NCBI GenBank assembly: GCA_018221205.1
Contig: JAAOYF010000017.1
Location: forward strand, 863 to 64,862
Direction: 5' to 3'
Length of the DNA: 64,000 nucleotides
Origin: Candidatus Woesearchaeota archaeon
GTDB taxonomy: Archaea; Nanobdellota; Nanobdellia; Woesearchaeales; WJIZ01
Each line of letters starts with the position of its first letter. The first letter of the stretch is position 1. This document shows positions 4,831 through 52,302 of this stretch, piece by piece. Both the position numbers and the translations under genes were made by a program. The notes below the pieces were generated by a model that worked only from the letters and a program-made list of their open reading frames with translations, was not told the DNA's origin and ran no database searches.

Positions 4831-6479
4831 AATTGAAACTGAATGCCATCCTAGAGGTCATGTTCCTTGCACTAGTTCTGGGAATGGTGCTTTATGCTGC
4901 GCTTGGCCCGCTTTGGCAGCAAAAGATAAAGCACGATTTCCCGACCGGTTATTTTGCTTCGGATACCTTCATCCACCTCACCTTCGCAGAAGAGATAAAA
5001 GAAAGGGGCCATTATCGTTATTATCCCTCCTATATGGCATGGGGATTTGATGATGTTATCGGCCATTATCCCCCTATTATCCATCATCTTGCTGCACTCT
5101 TCTCGCTCACAAGTTCGCTCCAGACCTATGATACAATCCTCCTCATGCTTGCTGTCCTTATTGCGCTTTCTATAGGGACATTATATTTCATCCTGAAGAA
5201 ATACAACAAGAACATCGCACTGATGTCATTGCCTCTATCTCTATTAGTTTTTACAGGAAAGGCGACAATAGGGTTCAATTGGGGACAATGGGGGTACCTT
5301 ACTGGTGCTGCATTCCTTATAGGGGTATTTTGGGCAGTCACTCAGCTTGATGTAAAACATTCATACATCCTTCTTGGATTATTTATCGGGATAGATGCTC
5401 TTGCTCACACCTCTGAAGCCATGATGGGTGTGCTCTTCACTCTCCTGTATATAGGTATTAAGCTTATCATTCGCAAGGGAACAAAAGAGAATATCTTTGA
5501 TGTCGTGAAAGCTGGAATAATTGCAGCCGTCATTTCAGGGTATTATCTTATTATTTTCTACTTCACGTGGTTCGCAGCAGAGTTCGAGATTAAAGTGACA
5601 AAGACACTGGTAAGCTTCGGCGTGCAAGATACTGCAGTGAGAATGGATATTTTTGGGTTCTTTTTGCCCCTCGTTATTATTGGTATGGTAGTAGCAGCAT
5701 TGTTCATCATAAGGAAAAAGATCAATGTTGCCTCCCTTATGGGATTCTTCATGCTGCTTATGGGCTACAGCTATCTTTTGGGAGCTGGAAGACGTGCTAC
5801 TCAGGCACGAATCTTTTGGCCGCTTTACCTCGCGGTCTTTCTCGGCATCACCCTGTATTTTGGGTTGAGGATCATCATAAGGAAATGGAGCATCATCTAT
5901 TCATATGCTATTGGTATAATCCTGCTTATGGTAATATTTACCCAATTCTACACGCCTAATCATTCACCAGGCCTGATGAACAATGAGCATTGGCAGTATT
6001 TCCAATGGGCAAGAGAAAACCTGCCAGAAAATAGTGAGGTATTTTACTTTTATAGTGATACGTGGATGCAGAATGCTATGCTCTACTTGGACCAAAGGAA
6101 TTCCTTCATCACTTCCCAATCATTTTTAGGAGAATCGTTGCAGAACAGGACTATTCCTCGTGAGTTCCGAGGAAAAATGGTAACTGAAGGGGGAGCCAGG
6201 CTTCCCTACAGAAAGGGCCTTTTTTCCTATGGATACCATAGTGAAGAAGTAGATAAATCTCCTTTTGTTGGATCGTTTGATATATGTAAATATGATTTTT
6301 ATGCTTTTGACAAGTTCAGTGCAGTGCCTGTATTGGCGCAATATAACCTGCTTATACGTCAGCAGTTGCTTCAAAACAGTTACATGGAAGAAGTGTATGC
6401 CAATAACTTGGTGACTGTATTGAAGAATAACAATCCAAGCGAGGATTGTCTGCCAAGGGAAGGTGTAGTCTTTGTATAA
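4827..6479 (+). CDS. Polytopic integral membrane protein, GT-C-like (putative Dol-P-sugar-dependent glycosyltransferase) with a C-terminal soluble domain
   Basis: At least 10 predicted TM helices followed by a ~150-aa hydrophilic tail. ATGA overlap with the upstream methyltransferase. No WWDYG motif, so it is not AglB. Confidence 0.45.
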   Translation: MKLKLNAILEVMFLALVLGMVLYAALGPLWQQKIKHDFPTGYFASDTFIHLTFAEEIKERGHYRYYPSYMAWGFDDVIGHYPPIIHHLAALFSLTSSLQTYDTILLMLAVLIALSIGTLYFILKKYNKNIALMSLPLSLLVFTGKATIGFNWGQWGYLTGAAFLIGVFWAVTQLDVKHSYILLGLFIGIDALAHTSEAMMGVLFTLLYIGIKLIIRKGTKENIFDVVKAGIIAAVISGYYLIIFYFTWFAAEFEIKVTKTLVSFGVQDTAVRMDIFGFFLPLVIIGMVVAALFIIRKKINVASLMGFFMLLMGYSYLLGAGRRATQARIFWPLYLAVFLGITLYFGLRIIIRKWSIIYSYAIGIILLMVIFTQFYTPNHSPGLMNNEHWQYFQWARENLPENSEVFYFYSDTWMQNAMLYLDQRNSFITSQSFLGESLQNRTIPREFRGKMVTEGGARLPYRKGLFSYGYHSEEVDKSPFVGSFDICKYDFYAFDKFSAVPVLAQYNLLIRQQLLQNSYMEEVYANNLVTVLKNNNPSEDCLPREGVVFV

Positions 6480-27020: not shown

Positions 27021-27058
27021 GATTCTCTAAGTTGCAACTCGATTTAAATATCTTTCCT

Positions 27059-28909
27059 TTAGACGACTCGGAATATGATTGCTCCTGCTGTCTGGAATGC
27101 GACTGGAAATTGAGGAGATGTTCCTATCTCTTCAATCCTTTGTGAAAGGAGTTCTTGAGTGACGTTCTCCCCGAAGGTCCTGCTTAAGAAATTAAAAGAG
27201 CTTCCATCGACAACCAGATATTCATATTCATTTTCCTTAAGGAACTGGGAAAGCTCACTCGCATTCTTATAGAGGATCTCCTTTCTGAACGCGACCACGT
27301 CGTCACACCAAAGACAGCTGAATTTATCCATACCGATCAGATGCTCATCATAGGAATACGCAAAAACCTTCGTACCGACAGGCAATTGTCCTAACCAGAT
27401 ATATCCTTGGATCTCCTCATTCGAGGTCCATCCTACTCCTGGCGGCCATTGTGCTGTATTGACAGCATACTTCTGCATCCCGGATGTCTGCCATAGGAGT
27501 ATGATTAAGATGATGATGGTGACAAATTGAGGTATCTTGAATTGTCTGCCTAATCTTACCAGGAACGAAAATCCCTCCGCAGCAAGAAGAGAAAGCGGCA
27601 GTGCGAACAGCATCCAGAATCTGAAAGCGAAAAGCCCGAATGGAAGATTAAAGGTAAGGCTGTTGATGCCTAGGAAAGTAAACAGGCTCCAGAGTATAAT
27701 GATGAGTGTCTTTGTCTTCTTGTCCTTATTCATCGACTTGAAAGTGAAAGCGATAAGGATGATAGAAAACAGAGCAAGCAAGGTTATGACAACACCAAGA
27801 CCGATAGGATTATTGATCATGTTAGCAGACTTAGCGACAAAAAAGTCATCGAAGGTATAGATGCGGGTAGCTGTTCCGCTGCCTGGCGGGAATGCTTTTT
27901 TGAGCGCTTGCCAGAGGTTGAATCCTCCTGACGATACATCCACTGCACCATCAGATCCTTTGAAGATGATCTGTTTCCAGTTCCATGCCCACCAGATAAG
28001 TGATAAAAGATAGCCTCCGGCAATCGCAGTAAAATGGGGCAAAGAGAATTTTCTGTTCATAATCCATCTGACGATAAAAAAGATGCCATACATGAATGCA
28101 TATTTGATAGGTTGTGTGGGTTGAGTGAGAGCAATGCCTGCAATGACCATCATAGTAGGATACATCCAGCGTTTATCCTTCTCAATCTGGACAAGGCAAT
28201 AGAGAGAGACGATGAAAAGGGTAGTGACTAGGGAATGTGCCCAGATGAAATGGCTCAGATAACTGGGTACCATCGCCAGCGCAATAGTGGCATACAATGC
28301 TTTTGAGCTCTGCAAGAAATGTTTAGCGAAGAAATAGAAAAAAAGAATGCCGAGCGAGATGAATAAGGCATTGAAGAATTTTAAAGTCCACATCAATGAG
28401 GCACTGGTCTGATGAAGTATGCCTAAGATTGCGTCAAAGGCAGGTGGATAAGGCAGGATATAGAAAAACTGGTCATGGGGATCATCAATCTTCTTTTCAA
28501 CAGCTACATATTTAGCACCCACCGCATGAGCCCAAGGATCATCATCTTCAAGATAGGGATACACAAAAGCCCCTTTGGTATACATGAAAAGGGTCGCCCC
28601 GAAAATTAAGAGTACGATAAGAAAATAGATATGTGACTTCTTGAGGATGAATGCATGCAATTTAAAATTTTTGTAGTTCTTGAAAGCCATCACCAAAGGG
28701 CCGATTATACTGAGCAAAAGAATGATTCTCCAATCCAGCATGATATGCAAAAAATCGAGAAGCACGACCAAAAAGGCCAGTACACCAAGGCCTATGCCTA
28801 TTCTCATGATATGCCGTTCGATGATATCTTGCTTCTTTAAGAAAAAGCTTGCACTGAAGCCTAATCCATAGGCATAGATGAAAAATAAGAGTATAGTGAA
28901 AAAGCTCAT
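27059..28909 (-). CDS. GT-C-fold membrane glycosyltransferase (ArnT/PMT-like) with a C-terminal soluble domain
   Basis: About 13 TM helices. The first extracytoplasmic loop carries an acidic YPYLEDDDPW motif like the GT-C DD/DE catalytic motif. Confidence 0.55.
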   Translation of the reverse strand: MSFFTILLFFIYAYGLGFSASFFLKKQDIIERHIMRIGIGLGVLAFLVVLLDFLHIMLDWRIILLLSIIGPLVMAFKNYKNFKLHAFILKKSHIYFLIVLLIFGATLFMYTKGAFVYPYLEDDDPWAHAVGAKYVAVEKKIDDPHDQFFYILPYPPAFDAILGILHQTSASLMWTLKFFNALFISLGILFFYFFAKHFLQSSKALYATIALAMVPSYLSHFIWAHSLVTTLFIVSLYCLVQIEKDKRWMYPTMMVIAGIALTQPTQPIKYAFMYGIFFIVRWIMNRKFSLPHFTAIAGGYLLSLIWWAWNWKQIIFKGSDGAVDVSSGGFNLWQALKKAFPPGSGTATRIYTFDDFFVAKSANMINNPIGLGVVITLLALFSIILIAFTFKSMNKDKKTKTLIIILWSLFTFLGINSLTFNLPFGLFAFRFWMLFALPLSLLAAEGFSFLVRLGRQFKIPQFVTIIILIILLWQTSGMQKYAVNTAQWPPGVGWTSNEEIQGYIWLGQLPVGTKVFAYSYDEHLIGMDKFSCLWCDDVVAFRKEILYKNASELSQFLKENEYEYLVVDGSSFNFLSRTFGENVTQELLSQRIEEIGTSPQFPVAFQTAGAIIFRVV

Positions 28910-31329: not shown

Positions 31330-32389
31330 GATCGCTATTATTTTAGGGACACGGCCTGAGATCATAAAGATGTCTCCGGTCATCAGAGAATGCATCAGAA
31401 GAAAAACAGACTTTTTTATCTTGCATAGTGGCCAGCATTATTCCTATCGTATGGATGCGAAGTTCTTTGAGGATTTGGAATTGCCTTCTCCTAGATATAA
31501 TCTCAATGTAGGCTCTTCGAGCCATGCCGCCCAGACAAGCGACATTTTGGCAAAGACAGAAAGGATACTCCTTAAAGAAAAGCCCGATGTTGTCCTAGTG
31601 CAAGGAGATACCAATACTGTATTGGCTGGGGCGCTTGCTGCTGCCAAGCTGCATATTCCTGTCGGCCATATTGAAGCAGGTCTGAGAAGCGGAGATAAGA
31701 ACATGCCCGAAGAGATCAATAGGATCATGGCTGACCACTGTTCTGATTTCCTTTTCGCTCCGACAGTGGAGACAAAGAAAAACCTGAAGAAAGAAAACAT
31801 CACGTCAAAGATCATTGTGACAGGAAATACGATTGTCGATGCTGTCCAGCAATCCCTGAAGATCAGCAAAAAGAAATCAAAGATAATGGGCGCCTTAAGA
31901 TTGAAAAAGAATAGGTTCATGCTCCTCACCCTGCACCGGCAGGAGAACGTGGACAATAAGGCACGATTAAAGCAGATTCTTTCAGGAATCCAAAAGATCC
32001 ATGATCAATTCAATCTATTGATAATCTATCCAATTCATCCCCGGACAAAGAAGAGGATACAGCAGTTCAAGCTGAAAATGCCTAAAGGTGTGAAACAGAT
32101 CAGACCCATAGGCTTCCTTGACTTCCTTCAGTTGGAGAGCAATGCCGCTTTGCTCTTGACTGACAGCGGAGGAGTGCAGGAAGAGGGCTGTATCCTGAAA
32201 GTGCCTTGCGTCACGATACGCGACAGTACAGAACGCCCAGAGACCGTGCAAGTGAAAGCAAATACCATAGCAGGTCATAATCCCAAGAATATTCTGAAGA
32301 GTGCAGAAAAAATGTTTTCAGTGAAGAGGATATGGAAAAATCCATTCGGAAAAGGGGATGCAGGAAAAAGAATTCTTAATTCCTTTTGA
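31322..32389 (+). CDS. wecB: UDP-N-acetylglucosamine 2-epimerase (non-hydrolysing)
   Basis: MVKIAIILGTRPEIIKMSPVI...LHSGQHY...VQGDTNT...GHIEAGLRS. Confidence 0.85.
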   Translation: MVKIAIILGTRPEIIKMSPVIRECIRRKTDFFILHSGQHYSYRMDAKFFEDLELPSPRYNLNVGSSSHAAQTSDILAKTERILLKEKPDVVLVQGDTNTVLAGALAAAKLHIPVGHIEAGLRSGDKNMPEEINRIMADHCSDFLFAPTVETKKNLKKENITSKIIVTGNTIVDAVQQSLKISKKKSKIMGALRLKKNRFMLLTLHRQENVDNKARLKQILSGIQKIHDQFNLLIIYPIHPRTKKRIQQFKLKMPKGVKQIRPIGFLDFLQLESNAALLLTDSGGVQEEGCILKVPCVTIRDSTERPETVQVKANTIAGHNPKNILKSAEKMFSVKRIWKNPFGKGDAGKRILNSF

Positions 32390-33497
32390 ACTGTTCACAT
32401 ATCTTCACTATTTTCTCCGCATTGATAGGCCAGTCGCATTCCTTCAGAACAAATTTTCTTCCTCGACCCGTAATTTCTTTACGGAGTGTGGCAGATTCAA
32501 GCAATCTGATGATGCTTTTCCCTAAATCATCTGCATCTCCTGCGCTAAAGATTAATGCCCTCTTTGTATCGCCTACTTCTCGCATCATTCCATTCAGATC
32601 CGGTGCGATAAAGGGAAGCTCCATAGCCATGTATTCATATCCTTTCAGCGGAAGGCAGATATCGGTGGCAAGGCTCCGAAGGTGGGTGACCAATCCTACT
32701 TTTGCCTGTGCGAGTATGGGTGGAATATTATGATGGGGTGTCCATCCTTTGAACACAAAATGTTTTTCCAGGCGCAGTCTCTTGACAAGCTGCCGTAGGT
32801 TCTCGAAGTCCCTACCATCTCCTATGATGATAAATGTCATTGTCGGAAATTTCTTCAGGACTTGTTGAGCAGCGTAAGGAATGAGCAATGTTCCGTCATG
32901 CGGTTCAACACCTCCCATATACACAACCATTTCCTTCCTTTTTCCTTTCCGTGGCCCGAACAGTTTCAGATTGACGCCGTGGCGGACAATGGTGATATTG
33001 TGCACATTTCGCTTGCGGAGCTGCCGCTTCAGCTCAGAATACGCTGCGATGACTTTATCAGAATGCCTCGCGACATAACACTCAAGCAGCGGTCCATACT
33101 TTTCAACCAGCTTATATTTTGATAAGCCCATAGTAAAATCATCAATATCATACACTAAAGGCACTTTCTTTAGTTTAGAATAGATGAGTGAAGGGAATGC
33201 GCTGACAACATTATGTGCTAAGACAATGTCTGCTTTACGTTTTCTCAGTTCTTTGAAGATTCGCAGCCCTGTCTTTAGATAGACCCACTCCTTTTTCTTG
33301 ACAAATCGTGATACCTTGCCGATATTCACCAAAGTAGCTTTTGGAAACTCTTTCTCAACCCCTTTCAGTGAAAGAAATGGTGCAATGACCGTAACGTCAT
33401 GCTTCCTCTCCAATAATTTCTTGACAATCCAATAGACTCTCAGCCCTCCCCCTCCTCGTAAAGGCCAGAAGCTGTCATGTGATACAACAATGATGTT
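32376..33497 (-). CDS. GT4-family glycosyltransferase
   Basis: MNIIVVSHDSFWPLRGGGGLRV N-terminus and GT-B C-terminal domain. Confidence 0.75.
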   Translation of the reverse strand, partial: NIIVVSHDSFWPLRGGGGLRVYWIVKKLLERKHDVTVIAPFLSLKGVEKEFPKATLVNIGKVSRFVKKKEWVYLKTGLRIFKELRKRKADIVLAHNVVSAFPSLIYSKLKKVPLVYDIDDFTMGLSKYKLVEKYGPLLECYVARHSDKVIAAYSELKRQLRKRNVHNITIVRHGVNLKLFGPRKGKRKEMVVYMGGVEPHDGTLLIPYAAQQVLKKFPTMTFIIIGDGRDFENLRQLVKRLRLEKHFVFKGWTPHHNIPPILAQAKVGLVTHLRSLATDICLPLKGYEYMAMELPFIAPDLNGMMREVGDTKRALIFSAGDADDLGKSIIRLLESATLRKEITGRGRKFVLKECDWPINAEKIVKICEQFKRN

Positions 33498-33512
33498 CAT
33501 AATGATCAAAAA

Positions 33513-34445
33513 CTAAGTGAGATTTTTAAAATATTCTATTGTATGCTTGAGACCTTCCTCCAATTCAATCTTCGGTTCCCAATTAAGATGCTTTTTTGCA
33601 AGTGAGATATCTGGCTTGCGTTGGATAGGGTCAGCCGCATGTAATTCTTTATTGATAGGTTTTGATTTTGATCCGGTTAAATGGATGATCTTCTCTGCTA
33701 GTTCTAGAATAGTGAACTCATCTGGATTGCCTAGATTAACCGGCCCGATAGCCTTAACTTGATTCATCATAGCAACCATCCCATTGATAAGATCAGCAAC
33801 ATAACAAAAGCTTCTTGTCTGTTTGCCATCGCCATAAATGGTGATGTCTTTGTCTGCCAAAGCCTGAGAAATGAAATTTGAGACCACTCTTCCATCATTC
33901 CTCGCCATCCTCGGCCCATAAGTATTGAATATCCTGACAACCCTGATATCCAGTTTATGCTGACGGTGATAATCAAAGCAAAGCGTCTCCGCACATCTCT
34001 TCCCTTCATCATAGCATGCCCGTATGCCTATGGGATTGACATTGCCCCAATAACTCTCCTTTTGGGGATGCTCTTTCGGATCACCATAGACTTCCGATGT
34101 GCTTGCCTGCAGCATTCTTGCATTATGCTTCTTTGCCAGGCCGAGCATGTTGATTGTCCCTAGGACGTTCGCCTTGATGGTGCGGATGGCGTTGAATTGG
34201 TAATGGACTGGGGATGCCGGACAGGCAAGATTATAGATCTGGTCGATGTTCTCCTCAATAGCTAGGGGATCGATGATATCATGATTCATCATTGTGAAGT
34301 TTGGATTTTTCTTGAGGTGCTCTATATTCTTCTCATTTCCGGTGAAGAAATTATCGACGCAGATAACTTTATTCTCCTTGATAAGAACATCGCACAGATG
34401 GCTCCCTAAGAAACCAGCTCCCCCAGTGACAACGATCGTCTTCAT
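33513..34445 (-). CDS. uxs: UDP-glucuronate decarboxylase (UDP-xylose synthase)
   Basis: [19 protein letters not shown]...CVDNFFTG...[19 protein letters not shown]. Confidence 0.85.
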
Positions 34446-35164
34446 GAGAGGAACTCCTTCTCTGCAAGCTCTAATTGCTCGAGTGAACCGATATCAAACC
34501 ATTTTTTCTTGACTGGATAGCCGAAAACATCCTCTTTTGTATACAGCCACTCCAAGAAATCTCCTGCTTTGTCGCTTTTTTGGGTTGAATCGAGGAATTC
34601 GATGAGCTTTTGTATGGTTTGGGCAGGATAGAAGTAAACTCCTGTTGAAGAGAGGGTGGATCTTGGCTCTTGAGGCTTCTCTTCGAAATGGACAATCTTT
34701 CCGTTCTCGGCTATCGAGACTATTCCATAGAGTTTCGCTAGTTCCTTGTTCTGGACATCATAGAGCGCGACCACATTGTTCCTTTTTTCCTTGAAGTAAG
34801 AGTAGATCTCTTCCAGACCGAATTCAAAGAGATTATCTCCTGCGACAATAAGTAAATCCTCATTGAGGGAAAACTTGTCGATGACAAACCGGATATCTCC
34901 TAATGAACCGAGCCTGTCATCATTTGACATGGTGAGGTCATTCACGATAGTGATCGGCTTTGCTATGCTTTTCTTCCACTCCTCGAAATGGGAAAAGAAC
35001 TTATTGTTCGTAACAACATAGATATGATCGACTTCTTGAGGTATCTTCTCGATGATATAGTTGATGATCAGCTTTCCTTTGACATCAAGAAGAGGTTTTG
35101 GTTTGTCCTTAGTAAGAGGATATAGCCTGGTGGCATACCCTGCAGCAAGAATGATTGCTTTCAT
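34442..35164 (-). CDS. Sugar-1-phosphate nucleotidylyltransferase (short NTP_transferase)
   Basis: [26 protein letters not shown]. Confidence 0.7.
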
Positions 35165-36462
35165 CCTCTTCCTACCCCTACATAAGTGAAACCTTTCTTT
35201 CGCATCTCCCTCGGTTCATAGACATTCCTCCCATCTATCACTATGGGCTGTTTCATCAATGATTTTATCTTATCCTTATCCAGATCCCTGAACTCATTCC
35301 ATTCAGTGACGATGACCAATGCATCCACCTCCTCTAATGCTTCATAAGGTGTCTTTGTATACGTAATATCAGAGAGCATCTTCTTCGCCGTGTCCTCTGC
35401 TTCAGGATCAAAAGCGATGATCTCTGCCCCCTCTTTCTGCAGTTGCTCGATGATAACGATAGAAGGTGCTTCCCTCATATCATCTGTCTTCGGCTTGAAC
35501 GCCAATCCCCATATCGCGATCTTCCTCCCCTTCAGATCAGGAACTAACTTTTTTATCTTAGGCAGCAATGATTTTTTTTGTTCTGTATTCACTTTATCCA
35601 CTGCCCACAGTATCTGCCCTTCGACATTGTGGTCAAGCATAGTCTCCCTGAAGGCTGCGACATCTTTCGGAAAGCAGCTTCCCCCATATCCTACTCCTGC
35701 TTGAAGGAATCTCGTCCCTATACGTGTATCAAGTCCCATCCCCTTGGCAACTGCCTTGACATCAGCTCCGACCTTCTCGCACAATTGCGCGACTTCATTC
35801 ATGAAAGAGATCCTTGTTGCGAGCATTGCGTTGCTTGCGTACTTGATCATCTCAGCACTTTTGACATCAGTGAAAAGTATGGGTTTGTCTGTCCTCACAA
35901 CTCCCCTATATATCTCTTCCATTACTTTTTGTGCTTGTTCTAATTCTGTCCCCACAACAATCCTGTCTGGATTGGTGAAATCTCCTATTGCCTCTCCTTC
36001 GCGAAGAAATTCAGGGTTTGAGATGACATCAAAAGGGATCTCCCTCTTCTGGTGTTCACGGATGATGATGGCCACTCTCTCTGCAGTCCCTACCGGAACA
36101 GTGCTTTTGTCGATGACAACCTTATACTCATCCATATATGTACCTATGTCTTTAGCGACTGCATATATTGCTGTCAGATCTGCCTCGTGATTGGCTCCAG
36201 GAGGTGTTCCTACAGCTATGAAGATTGCCTTGGACTCATGTATAGCGTCCTTGATGGATGTGGTGAAGATTATCCTATCCTCTTTCTGATTGCGCTTGAG
36301 CATCTCTGCCAGGCCCGGCTCGTAGATAGGCACCTTGCCTTCATTCAGCATCTCCACTTTGGCCTTATCGATATCGGCACAGATGACATCATTGCCCAGA
36401 TCTGCTAAGCAGACCCCTGCTACCAGACCGACATATCCTGTTCCTATGACTGCGATTTTCAT
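35161..36462 (-). CDS. ugd: UDP-glucose 6-dehydrogenase
   Basis: MKIAVIGTGYVGLVAG...GGSCFPKD (catalytic Cys). Confidence 0.85.
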   Translation of the reverse strand: MKIAVIGTGYVGLVAGVCLADLGNDVICADIDKAKVEMLNEGKVPIYEPGLAEMLKRNQKEDRIIFTTSIKDAIHESKAIFIAVGTPPGANHEADLTAIYAVAKDIGTYMDEYKVVIDKSTVPVGTAERVAIIIREHQKREIPFDVISNPEFLREGEAIGDFTNPDRIVVGTELEQAQKVMEEIYRGVVRTDKPILFTDVKSAEMIKYASNAMLATRISFMNEVAQLCEKVGADVKAVAKGMGLDTRIGTRFLQAGVGYGGSCFPKDVAAFRETMLDHNVEGQILWAVDKVNTEQKKSLLPKIKKLVPDLKGRKIAIWGLAFKPKTDDMREAPSIVIIEQLQKEGAEIIAFDPEAEDTAKKMLSDITYTKTPYEALEEVDALVIVTEWNEFRDLDKDKIKSLMKQPIVIDGRNVYEPREMRKKGFTYVGVGRG

Positions 36463-36483: not shown

Positions 36484-36522
36484 CTTTAAATATCTTACCA
36501 CTATCCTACCTTATCCGATATG
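36484..36522. promoter_or_regulatory. Divergent promoter with two TATA boxes (gctttaaatatc and tttatatac)
   Basis: Each box sits 24-38 nt upstream of its start codon (36462 minus, 36552 plus). Confidence 0.45.
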
Positions 36523-36551
36523 TTTATATACATATAATCTCTCCTATAAAC

Positions 36552-37349
36552 ATGAAAAGAAAGATCTCTGTGACGATCGATCAGGTCCTGCTCAAAGGAA
36601 TAGATTCCATTGTTGATAATATCTACATCAGAAACAGGAGCCAAGCCATCGAGCACTTGGTGAACCTTGCCTTAGGAGAGCATAAGACTGCTGTTATCCT
36701 TGCTGGTGGGCCCGAGGGGAAGATAAAGATAGACCGGAAGTTCAGGCCGACTGTGCAAGTCAATAAGAAAGCAGTCATAGAACGCGCTGTTGAGAGGTTA
36801 AGAGGGTCTGGCTTCAAGAATATCTATATCATCGCCCGACAGAATGTGCTTACGCAGATCTTCAATATCATAAAGGACGGCTCGATGTTCGGGGTAAACA
36901 TCAATTATGTTGAGGAGAAGAAGGCCACCGGGTCAGCAGATTCCTTGAGGCTCATAAAAGGTAAGGTAGACAATGATTTTCTGGTGGTCTATGGTGATAT
37001 ACTCTTCAAGAAGATTAATTTAGATGAGCTTTGGAACGATCATCTGAAGAATAATGCTATTGCCACGATGATGATGACCACTTCTTCAAGGCCCTCAGAG
37101 AAGGGTACCCTGCGTGTAGAGGGCAGTAAGGTGCTGACCTTCACCCAGAAACCGAAGGAATCTGACATCTATCTGGTATTCTCCCCCATATTTATCGCTA
37201 CGCCCGAACTTCTTGATTACCCAGGAACAAGCCTTGAGCGCAATATCTTCCCAGTATTGGCCTCGAAAGGCCTCTTGAATGGCCACCTAAGCTCAGAGAA
37301 AGAGCTCCATATACATACTACATCTGATGTGAGAAAACTGGAGAAGTAA
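36552..37349 (+). CDS. Ribbon-helix-helix (CopG-like) DNA-binding domain fused to a nucleotidyltransferase-like domain; putative regulator
   Basis: The N-terminal 45 aa (KISVTIDQVLLKGIDSIV...NRSQAIEHLVNLAL) are RHH-like. The rest is an NTP_transferase fold (AVILAGG..., GSADSL, VVYGDIL). Its G-loop lacks the canonical GxGTRL. Confidence 0.6.
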   Translation: MKRKISVTIDQVLLKGIDSIVDNIYIRNRSQAIEHLVNLALGEHKTAVILAGGPEGKIKIDRKFRPTVQVNKKAVIERAVERLRGSGFKNIYIIARQNVLTQIFNIIKDGSMFGVNINYVEEKKATGSADSLRLIKGKVDNDFLVVYGDILFKKINLDELWNDHLKNNAIATMMMTTSSRPSEKGTLRVEGSKVLTFTQKPKESDIYLVFSPIFIATPELLDYPGTSLERNIFPVLASKGLLNGHLSSEKELHIHTTSDVRKLEK

Positions 37350-37354
37350 AAAGG

Positions 37355-37470
37355 ATGGACAGCTTTCTTGGGTTCCCGTACGAAAGTACAGTACAACCAA
37401 AAACGGAAGCCGGTTTAACTGCCGAGTTCGAAATGGGATCGGGTGAACCCAGCCCCTATGGCCGTCCACT
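37355..37470 (-). rRNA. rrf: 5S ribosomal RNA
   Basis: The minus-strand read GGACGGCCAUAGGGGCUGGGUUCACCCGAUCCCAUUUCGAACUCGGCAGUUAAAC...GUUGUACUGUAC...GUACGGGAACCC...GCUGUCC has the universally conserved 5S loop sequences and a helix I that pairs 5' GGACGGC with 3' GCUGUCC. A T5 tract follows the 3' end and a TATA box lies 22-31 nt upstream. Ends are uncertain to ±3 nt. Confidence 0.8.
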
Positions 37471-38460: not shown

Positions 38461-39918
38461 ATGAAATCTATGTATGTGAAGAAGGACATACAGCAGGCGA
38501 TGGTGGAGAACGCGAGGAATAGGGAGATCGCGATCCGCTATGGTAATCATTTCGGCAAAAGGCCAGATATTATAACCTATCCTGATGAGGTCCTTGATCT
38601 CATCAAACAAGGCGCGACAAGCTTCCATGCATCTGAAGAGCTATGGGAAAATCCGAAGCTGATTGTTTCGGATATGAGACCGGCTGATGTTGCAAAGCTG
38701 CGCAAAGGATGGGATCTTATTCTAGACATCGACTCCCCTGTCTGGAAAATATCAAAGATAACTGCCTGGCTCATCATTCAGGCGTTGAAAGATTTCGGCA
38801 TCTCCTCGATTTCTGTGAAATTCTCTGGCAACAAGGGCTTTCATATCGGCGTACCTTTTGAAGCCTTCCCCGAGACATATAGAGAACAGAAGACAAAGGA
38901 TCTTTTTCCCGATGCTCCGAGAAGGATCGCAACCTTCCTCTTGGATTATATCAACCAGACCTACATCGCTGTCAAAGAGAACCAGATCGTCTTCGGAGAA
39001 GGCCTGAAGAGAAGATTTCGTGTCCCCTATGAAAAGCTGTTGAAAGTGACCGGAAAGAGCATGGAAAAGCTGACATTTCGGCATTGTTCAAAGTGTAGAA
39101 AGAAGATTGATGTAAAGACAGAGAGAAAAGTCGAATTCTATTGTCCAAAGTGCAGCAATTCAATAAAGAGTGAAGATAAGCAATTCGAGAAATGTCCAAA
39201 ATGCAAGATACTGATGGAAAAATTCGAAGGGAAGAAAAGCTTATGCTCATGCGGAAGCAATGAATCCTATATCATGTTCAATCCATCTTCCATAATCGAA
39301 GTAGATACCATCCTTATCTCCTCAAGGCATCTCTTCAGGATGCCCTATTCGATGCATGAAAAATCAGGATTGGTTTCGATTCCTTTTAATCCAGATAAGA
39401 TTCTTGAGTTTGAGAAGAAATATGCCCGTCCAGAGATCATTAAAGTGTCGAAGCATATATTCATCGATAGGGATAAGACAGAAAGAAACGAAGCGTCCAT
39501 GCTGTTGGGAAAAGCATTGGCATTCTCAGATCAGAAAGAGGAAGTGAAGATAAAGAAAGAATATGAAGAAGTGGGTGAAGCAGTTCCCGAAACACTATTC
39601 CCTCCGACAATCAAAAAGATGCTGGAAGGATTGGAAGATGGAAGAAAAAGGGCATTATTCATCCTCATCAATTTTCTCAAATGTGTCGGTTGGAGCCATG
39701 ATCTGATTGAGAAAAGGATAAAAGAATGGAACAAGAAGAATAAAGGGCCCTTAAAAGAGCAAATAATCATAGGTCAATTACGTTATCAGAAGAATAAAGA
39801 AAGGGTTCCTCCTCCGAACTATGATAAAGACTATTACTCTGGAATCGGCATTACACCCGCAGAAGAGGAGATGCGTTTCAAGAATCCAGTACGGTATGCG
39901 CTTGCAAGAAGGGGATAA
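38461..39918 (+). CDS. priS: DNA primase catalytic subunit (archaeo-eukaryotic primase, PriS) with a Zn-ribbon insert and a C-terminal PriCT-like helical domain
   Basis: DLILDIDSP (DxD), FSGNKGFHIGV (SGxRGFH), RHLFRMPYSMHEKSGL, two CxxC pairs. The C-terminal ~110 aa (GRKRALFILINFLKCVGWSHDLIEKRIKEWNKKNKGPL) resembles a primase C-terminal (PriCT) module. Confidence 0.7.
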   Translation: MKSMYVKKDIQQAMVENARNREIAIRYGNHFGKRPDIITYPDEVLDLIKQGATSFHASEELWENPKLIVSDMRPADVAKLRKGWDLILDIDSPVWKISKITAWLIIQALKDFGISSISVKFSGNKGFHIGVPFEAFPETYREQKTKDLFPDAPRRIATFLLDYINQTYIAVKENQIVFGEGLKRRFRVPYEKLLKVTGKSMEKLTFRHCSKCRKKIDVKTERKVEFYCPKCSNSIKSEDKQFEKCPKCKILMEKFEGKKSLCSCGSNESYIMFNPSSIIEVDTILISSRHLFRMPYSMHEKSGLVSIPFNPDKILEFEKKYARPEIIKVSKHIFIDRDKTERNEASMLLGKALAFSDQKEEVKIKKEYEEVGEAVPETLFPPTIKKMLEGLEDGRKRALFILINFLKCVGWSHDLIEKRIKEWNKKNKGPLKEQIIIGQLRYQKNKERVPPPNYDKDYYSGIGITPAEEEMRFKNPVRYALARRG

Positions 39919-52017: not shown

Positions 52018-52302
52018 TTACATCACAATCTCTTCAAAGACCTCTTCTTCAGCTGAATCAGTATCTCGTAGGATGAGATACTCATAAGCCTTATTCAAGA
52101 CAAGTGCTGCCTTAGGCAGGTCATTAAGTCTCAGAGAATTAGTGCTCTGCCATTCGTCATTCTTGTCTTTATACCTTCGCTGTAAAGATATAGTTCTAAA
52201 CTCTACAGCCTGGCCGGTTTTACTAGTGCCAGAATTCTTCCATATAGCAGCACTGATAGCGCCAGTGCTAAATTTTTTTTCAGGTTTGTCCATTCTTACC
52301 AA
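52018..52302 (-). CDS. Small hypothetical protein (94 aa); possibly a PC4-like ssDNA-binding fold
   Basis: No firm family. A weak pattern resemblance (W...EF.tISL.RRY.D...EW...SLRL..L) to PC4/YdbC-like proteins. Confidence 0.3.
   Translation of the reverse strand: MVRMDKPEKKFSTGAISAAIWKNSGTSKTGQAVEFRTISLQRRYKDKNDEWQSTNSLRLNDLPKAALVLNKAYEYLILRDTDSAEEEVFEEIVM

Follow-up and report, generated by a model that had tools for sequence, protein, structure and literature searches.

A ribbon-helix-helix domain fused to a decayed nucleotidyltransferase fold: a candidate sugar-nucleotide-responsive regulator of a UDP-xylose operon in Woesearchaeota

We analyzed a stretch of 64,000 nucleotides (hereafter the window) from a Candidatus Woesearchaeota archaeon, contig JAAOYF010000017.1 of assembly GCA_018221205.1, and in particular one open reading frame (ORF) which starts with ATG, codes for 265 amino acids and spans exactly positions 36552-37349 of the plus strand. 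Its product joins an N-terminal ribbon-helix-helix (RHH) domain to a C-terminal domain with the fold of the sugar-1-phosphate nucleotidyltransferases (NT), and is called RHH-NT in what follows. The gene is transcribed divergently from ugd, the first gene of an operon for the synthesis of UDP-xylose, and the short region between the two genes carries three similar boxes. Very probably RHH-NT is a transcription factor which acts on the ugd promoter through these three boxes. With moderate confidence we also propose that it is a one-component factor, i.e. that the RHH domain, when seated on the boxes, represses the UDP-xylose operon while the decayed NT domain senses a UDP-sugar. The protein is 100% identical to the hypothetical protein GOV09_02355 of Candidatus Woesearchaeota archaeon and has 677 homologues with E<1e-3; the best 120 of these 677 align over their full length with 56-75% identity, the majority with 62-75%. 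Members of the family are annotated in databases as hypothetical proteins, as NDP-sugar (nucleoside diphosphate sugar) pyrophosphorylase family proteins or as NTP transferase domain-containing proteins.

The first 45 residues are recognized, on the evidence of profiles, as a RHH domain of the NikR/CopG type. The window protein alone gives a weak match to NikR in NCBIfam (E=0.0033, residues 4-45) and finds NikR 1q5v in PDB at E=0.31. When the first ~48 residues of 32 diverse members of the family were made into a profile and compared with PDB, the best match was NikR of E. coli (E=1.3e-6; residues 2-46, which is the whole beta-alpha-alpha unit). Next came NikR of P. horikoshii with 2.2e-4, the antitoxin Rv0298, which is also a RHH protein, and CopG. 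Pfam RHH_1 is present in 51 of 108 diverse homologues, with a best E of 2.6e-9. This agrees with the original prediction, which was made from the sequence of the window and had described the N-terminus as a CopG/RHH module. The beta-strand, residues 4-9, reads K4-I-S6-V-T8-I, where K4, S6 and T8 are invariant in the window clade, and helix 2 carries the motif IRNRSQAIEHL, whose NRSQAIE is aligned to NRSEAIR of NikR; with 0.09 bits of entropy this helix is the most conserved segment of the protein. The NikR models of NCBIfam cover residues 4-45 only, and what follows is a domain of the NTP_transferase fold, without the ACT-like domain of NikR and its His/Cys nickel site. Two other origins of this N-terminus were considered. 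A mis-called start or an artefactual fusion was ruled out, as the N-terminus is the best-conserved part of the protein across hundreds of homologues, and so was a RHH of the toxin-antitoxin type, as the gene is single, highly conserved and syntenic, and lacks a partner toxin.

The C-terminal domain matches Pfam NTP_transferase (PF00483) over residues 47-223 with E=8e-19. In an AlphaFold monomer model of the protein, built with 24 homologues, the predicted local distance difference test (pLDDT) is ~90 across most of this domain, and the top Foldseek matches of the model are 8x7s, RmlA, MurU and GMPPB (E ~1e-15, TM ~0.7, probability 1.0). The closest solved structures are 8x7s, which is a CugP-type UTP-glucose-1-phosphate uridylyltransferase (UGPase), RmlA-type enzymes and GDP-mannose pyrophosphorylases, so that the NTP_transferase fold which had been assigned to this half is well founded.

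A loop of the GxGTR type is the signature motif of active NT enzymes. In pairwise alignments to solved enzymes RHH-NT has GGPEGKI at the place of GGTGSRL or AGKGTRV, and GxG(T/S)R(L/M)xP is absent from its loop, which reads GGPEGKIK. The window-clade consensus of this loop is GGxE(E/D/G)x(L/I)(K/R), with a variable residue at the position of the catalytic Arg: position 55, at the place of the second Gly, is acidic (a nearly invariant E55), while position 57 can be K, H, N, R or S. Residues 54-64, the former loop, have a column entropy of 1.67 bits compared with a mean of 0.76 for the protein, and no other internal segment varies as much. R65 (R65-P-T) stands where the PK motif has its Lys, and the C-terminal WxDxGT is replaced by L-H-I-H-T, in which H253-I-H255 is invariant and specific for the clade. 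Of the pair of metal-binding Asp residues, the one of the GD motif (D149) is kept in 102 of 108 homologues and the second, that of WxDxGT, has given way to the HIH. Altogether, 119 of 120 close homologues are without all three of GxG[TS][RK], PK and WxDxGT. What is retained are LAGG, G127-(T/S)-A, D149 and K200 of the EKP-type motif (here Q-K-P), and residues 172-214, which correspond to the sugar-binding lobe of the NT enzymes, are nearly invariant (0.08 bits for 204-214).

Since the loop has drifted, since the nucleoside and sugar-phosphate motifs are kept and since a separate canonical NT is encoded nearby, we consider with good confidence that the domain is non-catalytic, most likely a ligand-binding module. 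The replacement of the catalytic loop by VILAGGPEGKIKIDRKFRPT, as quoted in the original prediction, is indeed present in the ORF, and the degeneracy read from it is accompanied by relaxed constraint across the family; those homologues in which the loop is intact also keep the RHH domain. There is a known example of such decay: GMPPA is a non-catalytic paralogue of GDP-mannose pyrophosphorylase which binds GDP-mannose for feedback control (PMC11228364). It is a precedent for a pseudoenzyme of the NT fold which senses a NDP-sugar, and its partner GMPPB is among the top structural matches of RHH-NT. The nearby canonical NT, NT2, lies two genes from RHH-NT, and the possibility that RHH-NT is its recent duplicate was ruled out, because the NT domains are only 22% identical (E=6e-6) whereas RHH-NT is 31% identical over its full length to a fusion from the candidate phyla radiation (CPR).

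The start of ugd was placed at the ATG at 36462 rather than at the GTG at 36501, which leaves 89 bp between ugd and the RHH-NT gene. This region contains two TATA-like elements, in accordance with the divergent arrangement from a TATA-box region that had been described for it, as well as the three boxes of the predicted operator, with the consensus TATC(C/T)TAC (Table 1). The center of the ugd-proximal TATA element lies ~26 nt from the ugd ATG; the element overlaps box 1 by 2 nt and in most relatives is the palindrome TATTTAAATA. The second element, whose center is ~25 nt upstream of the RHH-NT ATG in a leaderless-type arrangement, was found only in the sub-clade of the window. The block TATTTAAATA-TCTTACC-nTTA-TCCTAC-TTTAT-nCTAC is near-invariant among species whose proteins are ~53-60% identical. 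Its mean pairwise identity over 51 non-redundant loci is 87%, as opposed to 40% and 31% in the adjacent intergenic flanks, and many of its columns reach 2.0 bits. The 14-base core TCTTACCNNNATCCTAC is present in 45 loci in exactly one copy per locus, always in the same place and the same orientation; by arithmetic, a pattern of 14 bases is expected approximately once per 2.7e8 positions. In the window the core occurs once with zero mismatches, 0.4 matches with two mismatches or fewer being expected by chance, and matches at 52294 and 61906, with two mismatches each, were rejected as chance level. Most relatives have only 56-70 bp between the genes, with the boxes located between the palindromic TATTTAAATA and the start codon of the regulator, and this single palindrome appears to serve both divergent genes. 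Where insertions of 170-300 bp separate the two genes, the block remains beside the ugd-side promoter.

Two further observations concern these non-coding regions. In several relatives GC-rich inserts with many palindromes extend the region between ugd and the RHH-NT gene to 220-510 bp (L018 ~965-1195, L025 ~5700-5990, L030, L059, L014, L017, L020). The inserts share motifs such as GGGTTTCGCCCCTTGAGGACGAGGAACTTTTTGCGAAAAAGTTCCATCAAAAA and leave the operator on the ugd side; they could be similar to miniature inverted-repeat transposable elements or could be small structured RNAs. Elsewhere in the window, TTTAAATATCTTTCC at 27045-27060, upstream of a 616-aa TgpA_N-like gene (27059-28909, minus strand), combines a TATA element with TATCTT as in the operator region. 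As it lacks a second box, it is probably merely a similar core promoter.

The genomic context of RHH-NT was surveyed in 57 loci from a scan of GTDB species representatives, 56 of which code for proteins 51-75% identical to RHH-NT and belong to Woesearchaeota and Nanoarchaeota; the neighbor genes of the window were searched in these loci with tblastn. In ~47 of the 57 species-level loci ugd lies immediately upstream on the opposite strand, usually followed by NT2 and by the gene for UDP-xylose synthase (UXS), while the downstream side is not conserved. The fusion thus recurs beside a UDP-sugar operon, a question which had been raised together with the original prediction. Read from sequence, ugd, NT2, UXS and a family 4 glycosyltransferase (GT4) of the window make a complete route from glucose 1-phosphate to UDP-xylose, plus a transferase. 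They belong to a glycan island from ~20 to 36.5 kb with GT4s, a flippase, a family 2 glycosyltransferase (GT2), a methyltransferase, UDP-GlcNAc 2-epimerase, UXS, NT and Ugd. The run from ugd to GT4 forms the end of this island, at whose edge RHH-NT had been placed before. Other loci have other sugar genes as partners: the RHH-NT gene faces a GHMP-type kinase and a GalU-like UGPase in L008, adjoins an epimerase and a C-methyltransferase-like gene in L052, faces an epimerase-NT-NT-GT2 operon in Tiddalikarchaeum (L062, protein 35% identical) and faces a gene for phosphoglucomutase/phosphomannomutase (PGM/PMM) in a member of Diapherotrites (L143). The linkage to sugar genes is lost only in L049 and in L029 and L051, where RHH-NT stands behind a tRNA-endonuclease-like gene. 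It should also be mentioned that a number of GTDB representatives, metagenome-assembled genomes titled 'uncultured Methanosarcinales archaeon' (L010, L011, L016, L023 and others), carry the gene and the operator of the Woesearchaeal type, and are probably mislabelled.

The sequence of the boxes changes together with the strand of the RHH domain. A K-x-S-x-T strand goes with GTAGGA-type boxes (window clade, Tiddalikarchaeum L062 and L145), R-x-S-x-T with GTAATA palindromes (L144), and R-x-T-x-T with GTATGA (subfamily B of CPR, Diapherotrites L143 and E. coli NikR). The Diapherotrites protein, with the strand R-V-T-I-T-I, has tandem GTATGATA and GTATGACA boxes between TATA and ATG. In CPR subfamily B, where the strand is R-L-T-I-T-L, GTATGAT boxes were found upstream of the gene itself in 37 of 70 loci. 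In these loci they usually come as a tandem pair of GTATGATA with a spacing of 10 bp; the pair follows a TTGAC similar to a -35 element, and its 3' member looks like a -10 hexamer. The strand of NikR is R-V-T-I-T-L and its E. coli operator is GTATGA-N16-TCATAC, i.e. it has the half-site GTATGA (PMC7055735). The GTAGGA-type boxes also occur as perfect inverted repeats in L062 and L053, and boxes are in inverted orientation in L052 as well. If the boxes were not read by the fused RHH domain, such covariation of strand and box, across archaeal and bacterial promoters, would be difficult to account for. In some CPR loci (L075, L078, L084, L081, L076, L067) we noticed another kind of repeat upstream of the subfamily B genes: long 7-bp tandem arrays, (GTAGGAA)n or (GTAGGTT)n, after which comes the complement (AACCTAC)n. 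Together they form large palindromes, and CCTAC, the core of the archaeal box, is part of the repeated unit.

We propose the following mechanism. The RHH domain would dimerise and insert its beta-strand, with K4, S6 and T8, into the major groove of the GTA(G/A)GATA boxes. As the three boxes are one helical turn apart, several dimers would be aligned on one face of the DNA, and the NT domains could mediate contacts among neighboring RHH dimers. At the ugd operon the array of boxes covers the position of the TFB recognition element (BRE) and reaches the edge of the TATA box, and proteins seated on it would also cover the core promoter region of the regulator gene, so its occupancy should block the recruitment of TATA-binding protein (TBP) and transcription factor B (TFB), or of RNA polymerase. 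The result would be repression of the operon which leads from UDP-glucose through UDP-glucuronate to UDP-xylose, and usually of the regulator itself. The NT-like domain, having no loop to handle a triphosphate, would bind a NDP-sugar instead of making one. We favor, again with moderate assurance, a nucleotide-sugar of the pathway or its precursor as the ligand; the likeliest candidates would be UDP-sugars of the adjacent pathway, UDP-xylose or UDP-glucuronate, whose binding would alter oligomerisation or affinity for DNA. As for the direction of the response, co-repression by the end product is preferred, and a corepressor rather than an inducer or activator is a tentative choice only.

Several points weigh against this interpretation. 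The window protein by itself stays below the threshold of Pfam RHH_1, and in the AlphaFold monomer residues 1-40 have pLDDT <50 and form helices at 11-21 and 29-41 with no strand, so that structure prediction, put forward earlier as a check of both halves, supports the NT half but gives only helices of low confidence for the RHH half. RHH domains fold only as intertwined, obligate dimers; the low pLDDT of a monomer is therefore uninformative and neither confirms nor refutes the RHH domain. In the binding pocket Glu122 is aligned with the base-reading Gln of RmlA-type enzymes, from which base specificity is not inferable, and Ile150 and Gln199 stand at the places of two residues which contact the sugar in the enzymes, the Asn of GDN and the Glu of EKP, i.e. 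the pocket is remodelled and the identity of the ligand is not readable from the sequence. The boxes are imperfect, and an exact-seed repeat finder (seed 6) run on the window sequence reported none of the three, because they differ at position 5. The same program reported a perfect 9-nt inverted repeat, ATGTTTATA-N16-TATAAACAT, which extends over the second TATA element and the start codon, and, close to where ugd starts, an inverted CGGATA. We take both as chance since neither is conserved in relatives. Part of the invariance of the block must stem from TATA and BRE function, the linkage to ugd is missing at four loci and there is no box at L029 and L051. Finally, a factor bound immediately before the TATA box of an archaeal promoter can also be an activator.

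Some of these points are shared by the reading that the conserved block is no more than a bidirectional core promoter or a site for some other factor, and that RHH-NT acts elsewhere or as an activator, with synteny reflecting only co-expression. The block does include the TATA box and the BRE position, archaeal activators are generally known to bind often just upstream of BRE and TATA, and L029 and L051 do without boxes. However, the boxes change with the RHH strand in unrelated promoters, archaeal ones with TATA and bacterial ones with -35/-10 elements, and match the NikR half-site, while their occurrence in both direct and inverted orientation (L062, L053, L052) argues against a purely promoter-element role. 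We regard this reading as improbable.

About as improbable, in our opinion, is a bifunctional enzyme and repressor like BirA, NadR or PutA, whose non-canonical loop would still be catalytic and whose catalytic state, or product formed in situ, would control DNA binding. The Mg-binding D149, the sugar-phosphate residue K200 and the GTA motif are kept, and K57 and R65 could in principle replace the canonical Arg and Lys. Moreover, CPR and some DPANN relatives combine a near-canonical loop with the RHH domain, which makes it probable that there was once a state of enzyme plus regulator; it may persist in them. In the window clade, on the other hand, the loop positions are the most variable ones, among them 55 and 57 as described above, the second metal Asp is a His, and the regulated operon already codes for a canonical NT. 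Somewhat less improbable, but still unlikely, is that the NT-like domain is a mere oligomerisation scaffold, or that it senses something other than a NDP-sugar, for example a metal at H253-x-H255 and H245, which would echo NikR. The RHH domain is closest to that of NikR, the invariant HIH of the clade stands at the WxDxGT position and the sugar-contacting residues are remodelled. But the nucleoside-binding LAGG and G-T/S-A motifs are conserved together with the nearly invariant residues 172-214, the HIH motif is missing from most of the wider family, and the genes beside it belong in all cases to NDP-sugar metabolism and in none to metal transport. A repressor of the UDP-xylose operon with a decayed, sugar-sensing NT domain is our preferred interpretation.

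The family reaches beyond archaea. A metagenome scan made with the sub-family alignment yielded a CPR subfamily of 499 loci, found via the motif IRNRSHAIE, and more than 1,000 proteins at E<=1e-20, with hosts in Patescibacteria (Buchanan-, Falkow- and Paceibacteria). The best 150 representatives after clustering at 50% are all RHH-NT fusions or fragments thereof, and those of full length have ~28-50% identity. The loop of the CPR subfamily reads GGxG(L/V/T)K(M/L)RPFTYEMPK and WxDxG is mostly kept. Among DPANN members a few are fully canonical (P0153, P0155, P0164, P0208, P0226, P0233), while in most the loop is degenerate or deleted. The ancestral fusion was probably an active enzyme with a RHH domain, because lost canonical motifs are not plausibly regained, and we infer that the window clade is a later pseudoenzyme derivative. 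The same architecture is common to CPR bacteria and DPANN archaea at ~30% full-length identity (L063-L142), which points to inter-domain transfer between two ultra-small radiations. The CPR genes have central sugar metabolism as neighbors, namely PGM/PMM, glyceraldehyde-3-phosphate dehydrogenase, phosphofructokinase, phosphoglycerate kinase and NagB, as well as a TrmB-like regulator.

A wider interpretation, which is possible but which we put forward only tentatively, is that these proteins are an undescribed family of NDP-sugar-responsive transcription factors in DPANN and CPR, with RHH-NT as its founding member, and that they make a series from bifunctional enzyme-repressors to pseudoenzyme sensors with a readable RHH code. 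At one end of such a series the loop would be near-canonical, the enzyme's own product would be the corepressor and the boxes would overlap its own core promoter; at the other end pure pseudoenzyme sensors would exert feedback control over the UDP-xylose operon. The code R-T-T/GTATGA, K-S-T/GTAGGA and R-S-T/GTAATA would then give these uncultured lineages their first predictable cis-regulatory grammar.

The features discussed are collected in Table 1. On its other side the RHH-NT gene is followed, 5 nt past its stop, by a 5S rRNA gene on the minus strand (37354-37469; Rfam RF00001, 69.5 bits, E=5.5e-14), and the short ORFs listed within that region are spurious. Further downstream, at 38461-39918 of the plus strand, lies a gene for a 485-aa protein which matches the primase small subunit (PF01896, E=3.5e-11) and weakly the large subunit (PF04104) and looks like a fused PriS-PriL; it is found downstream of the regulator only in the closest relatives (L003-L005, L007). 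In L001 (3737-5692, minus strand; identical to L022) the homologue of UXS has 651 aa and the order Epimerase - LAGLIDADG_3 (faint) - Epimerase, which points to an intein within this enzyme. In L017, L026 and L042 Ugd gave tblastn matches that are partial or split, a hint of similar insertions there.

Table 1. Positions of the RHH-NT gene, its domains, the divergent operon and the predicted regulatory elements in the window.
Feature	Position	Strand	Evidence or remark
RHH-NT fusion gene, candidate transcription factor	36552..37349	+	ORF, 265 aa plus stop
NikR/CopG-type RHH domain, residues 1-45	36552..36686	+	profile against PDB, Pfam RHH_1
NT-fold domain (sugar-1-phosphate nucleotidyltransferase), residues 47-265, predicted non-catalytic sensor	36690..37346	+	Pfam, AlphaFold, Foldseek
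Degenerate former catalytic G-loop, L50-R65, LAGGPEGKIKIDRKFR	36699..36746	+	alignment to 8x7s and 3hl3
ugd, UDP-glucose 6-dehydrogenase, first gene of divergent operon	35161..36462	-	Pfam three-domain; NCBIfam NDP-sugar dehydrogenase 1.8e-144
NT2, canonical sugar-1-phosphate nucleotidyltransferase, probable UGPase of the pathway	34442..35164	-	Pfam 7.5e-40, NCBIfam, PDB
UXS, UDP-glucuronate decarboxylase (UDP-xylose synthase)	33513..34445	-	PDB human UXS1, E=4.8e-118
GT4 glycosyltransferase, last gene of same-strand run	32376..33509	-	Pfam Glycos_transf_1 and Glyco_transf_4
Predicted operator, three direct boxes with 11- and 10-bp spacing	36491..36519	.	block conserved in 51 non-redundant loci
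Box 1, TATCTTAC	36491-36498	.	51/51 loci; ugd-sense strand GTAAGATA
Box 2, TATCCTAC	36502-36509	.	46/51 loci; ugd-sense strand GTAGGATA
Box 3, TATCCGAT	36512-36519	.	more variable, TATACTAC in most relatives; ugd-sense strand ATCGGATA
ugd-proximal TATA-like element, TTTAAATA	36485..36492	.	near 2 bits per column across loci
Second TATA-like element, TTTATATA	36523..36530	+	sequence

To our knowledge, gene regulation in DPANN archaea and CPR bacteria is almost unexplored, as so few of their members have been cultured, and our search of the literature on RHH-NT fusions, on RHH regulators in DPANN and CPR and on UDP-sugar-binding regulators found nothing relevant. The family described here is large, with hundreds to thousands of members, and the locus in the window is a complete candidate regulatory unit with a protein of 265 aa, a predicted operator of 30 bp and a short list of candidate ligands. 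If our interpretation is true, RHH-NT would be a rare transcription factor which reads an activated sugar directly, the NT-fold pseudoenzyme would join the repertoire of sensor domains, and the family would be an example of an enzyme-regulator fusion decaying to a pure sensor. The recognition code would also allow the prediction of regulons for cell-surface glycan synthesis, which is likely central to the interaction of episymbionts with their hosts.

When compared with known systems, RHH-NT resembles NikR most closely in its DNA-binding part. The RHH of NikR is the nearest by sequence, both proteins have an N-terminal RHH and a C-terminal sensor, and those relatives of RHH-NT which have the R-x-T-x-T strand adjoin GTATGA, the half-site of NikR. 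They differ in the sensor, which in NikR is an ACT-like domain for tetramerisation and metal binding and in RHH-NT is of the NT (GT-A-like) fold, and in the operator, which in NikR is an inverted repeat with N16 controlling nickel uptake and here is a set of tandem boxes 10-11 bp apart next to genes of UDP-sugar synthesis. With GMPPA it would share the state of a NT-fold pseudoenzyme which binds a NDP-sugar. GMPPA binds the NDP-sugar product and takes part in feedback (PMC11228364), and it acts on GMPPB through protein-protein contact, whereas the readout of RHH-NT would be transcription via the fused RHH. The active enzymes of the same fold, RmlA, CugP-type UGPase, GMPPB and MurU, have in common with RHH-NT the motifs LAGG, G-T/S-A and GD and the motif Lys (QKP here, EKP in the enzymes), but RHH-NT has lost GxGTR, the Lys of PK and the Asp of WxDxGT and carries a DNA-binding domain. 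One-component regulators derived from enzymes are well represented by BirA, NadR, PutA, which is a RHH plus an enzyme, and B. subtilis PurR, a pseudoenzyme of the phosphoribosyltransferase fold which senses phosphoribosyl pyrophosphate. In them, as in RHH-NT, a DNA-binding domain is joined to an enzyme, still active or decayed, from the pathway under control; the fold, the domain combination, the class of ligand and the host lineages (DPANN, CPR) are different. The novel architecture claimed for this gene holds in the sense of a candidate transcription-factor family with a new sensor fold and does not hold in the sense of a principle: as an enzyme-derived sensor joined to a DNA-binding domain is already known, RHH-NT would stand for a new family and not for a new principle. 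By analogy, PurR may be the nearer model for the window clade, and BirA or NadR for those CPR relatives whose loops are near-canonical.

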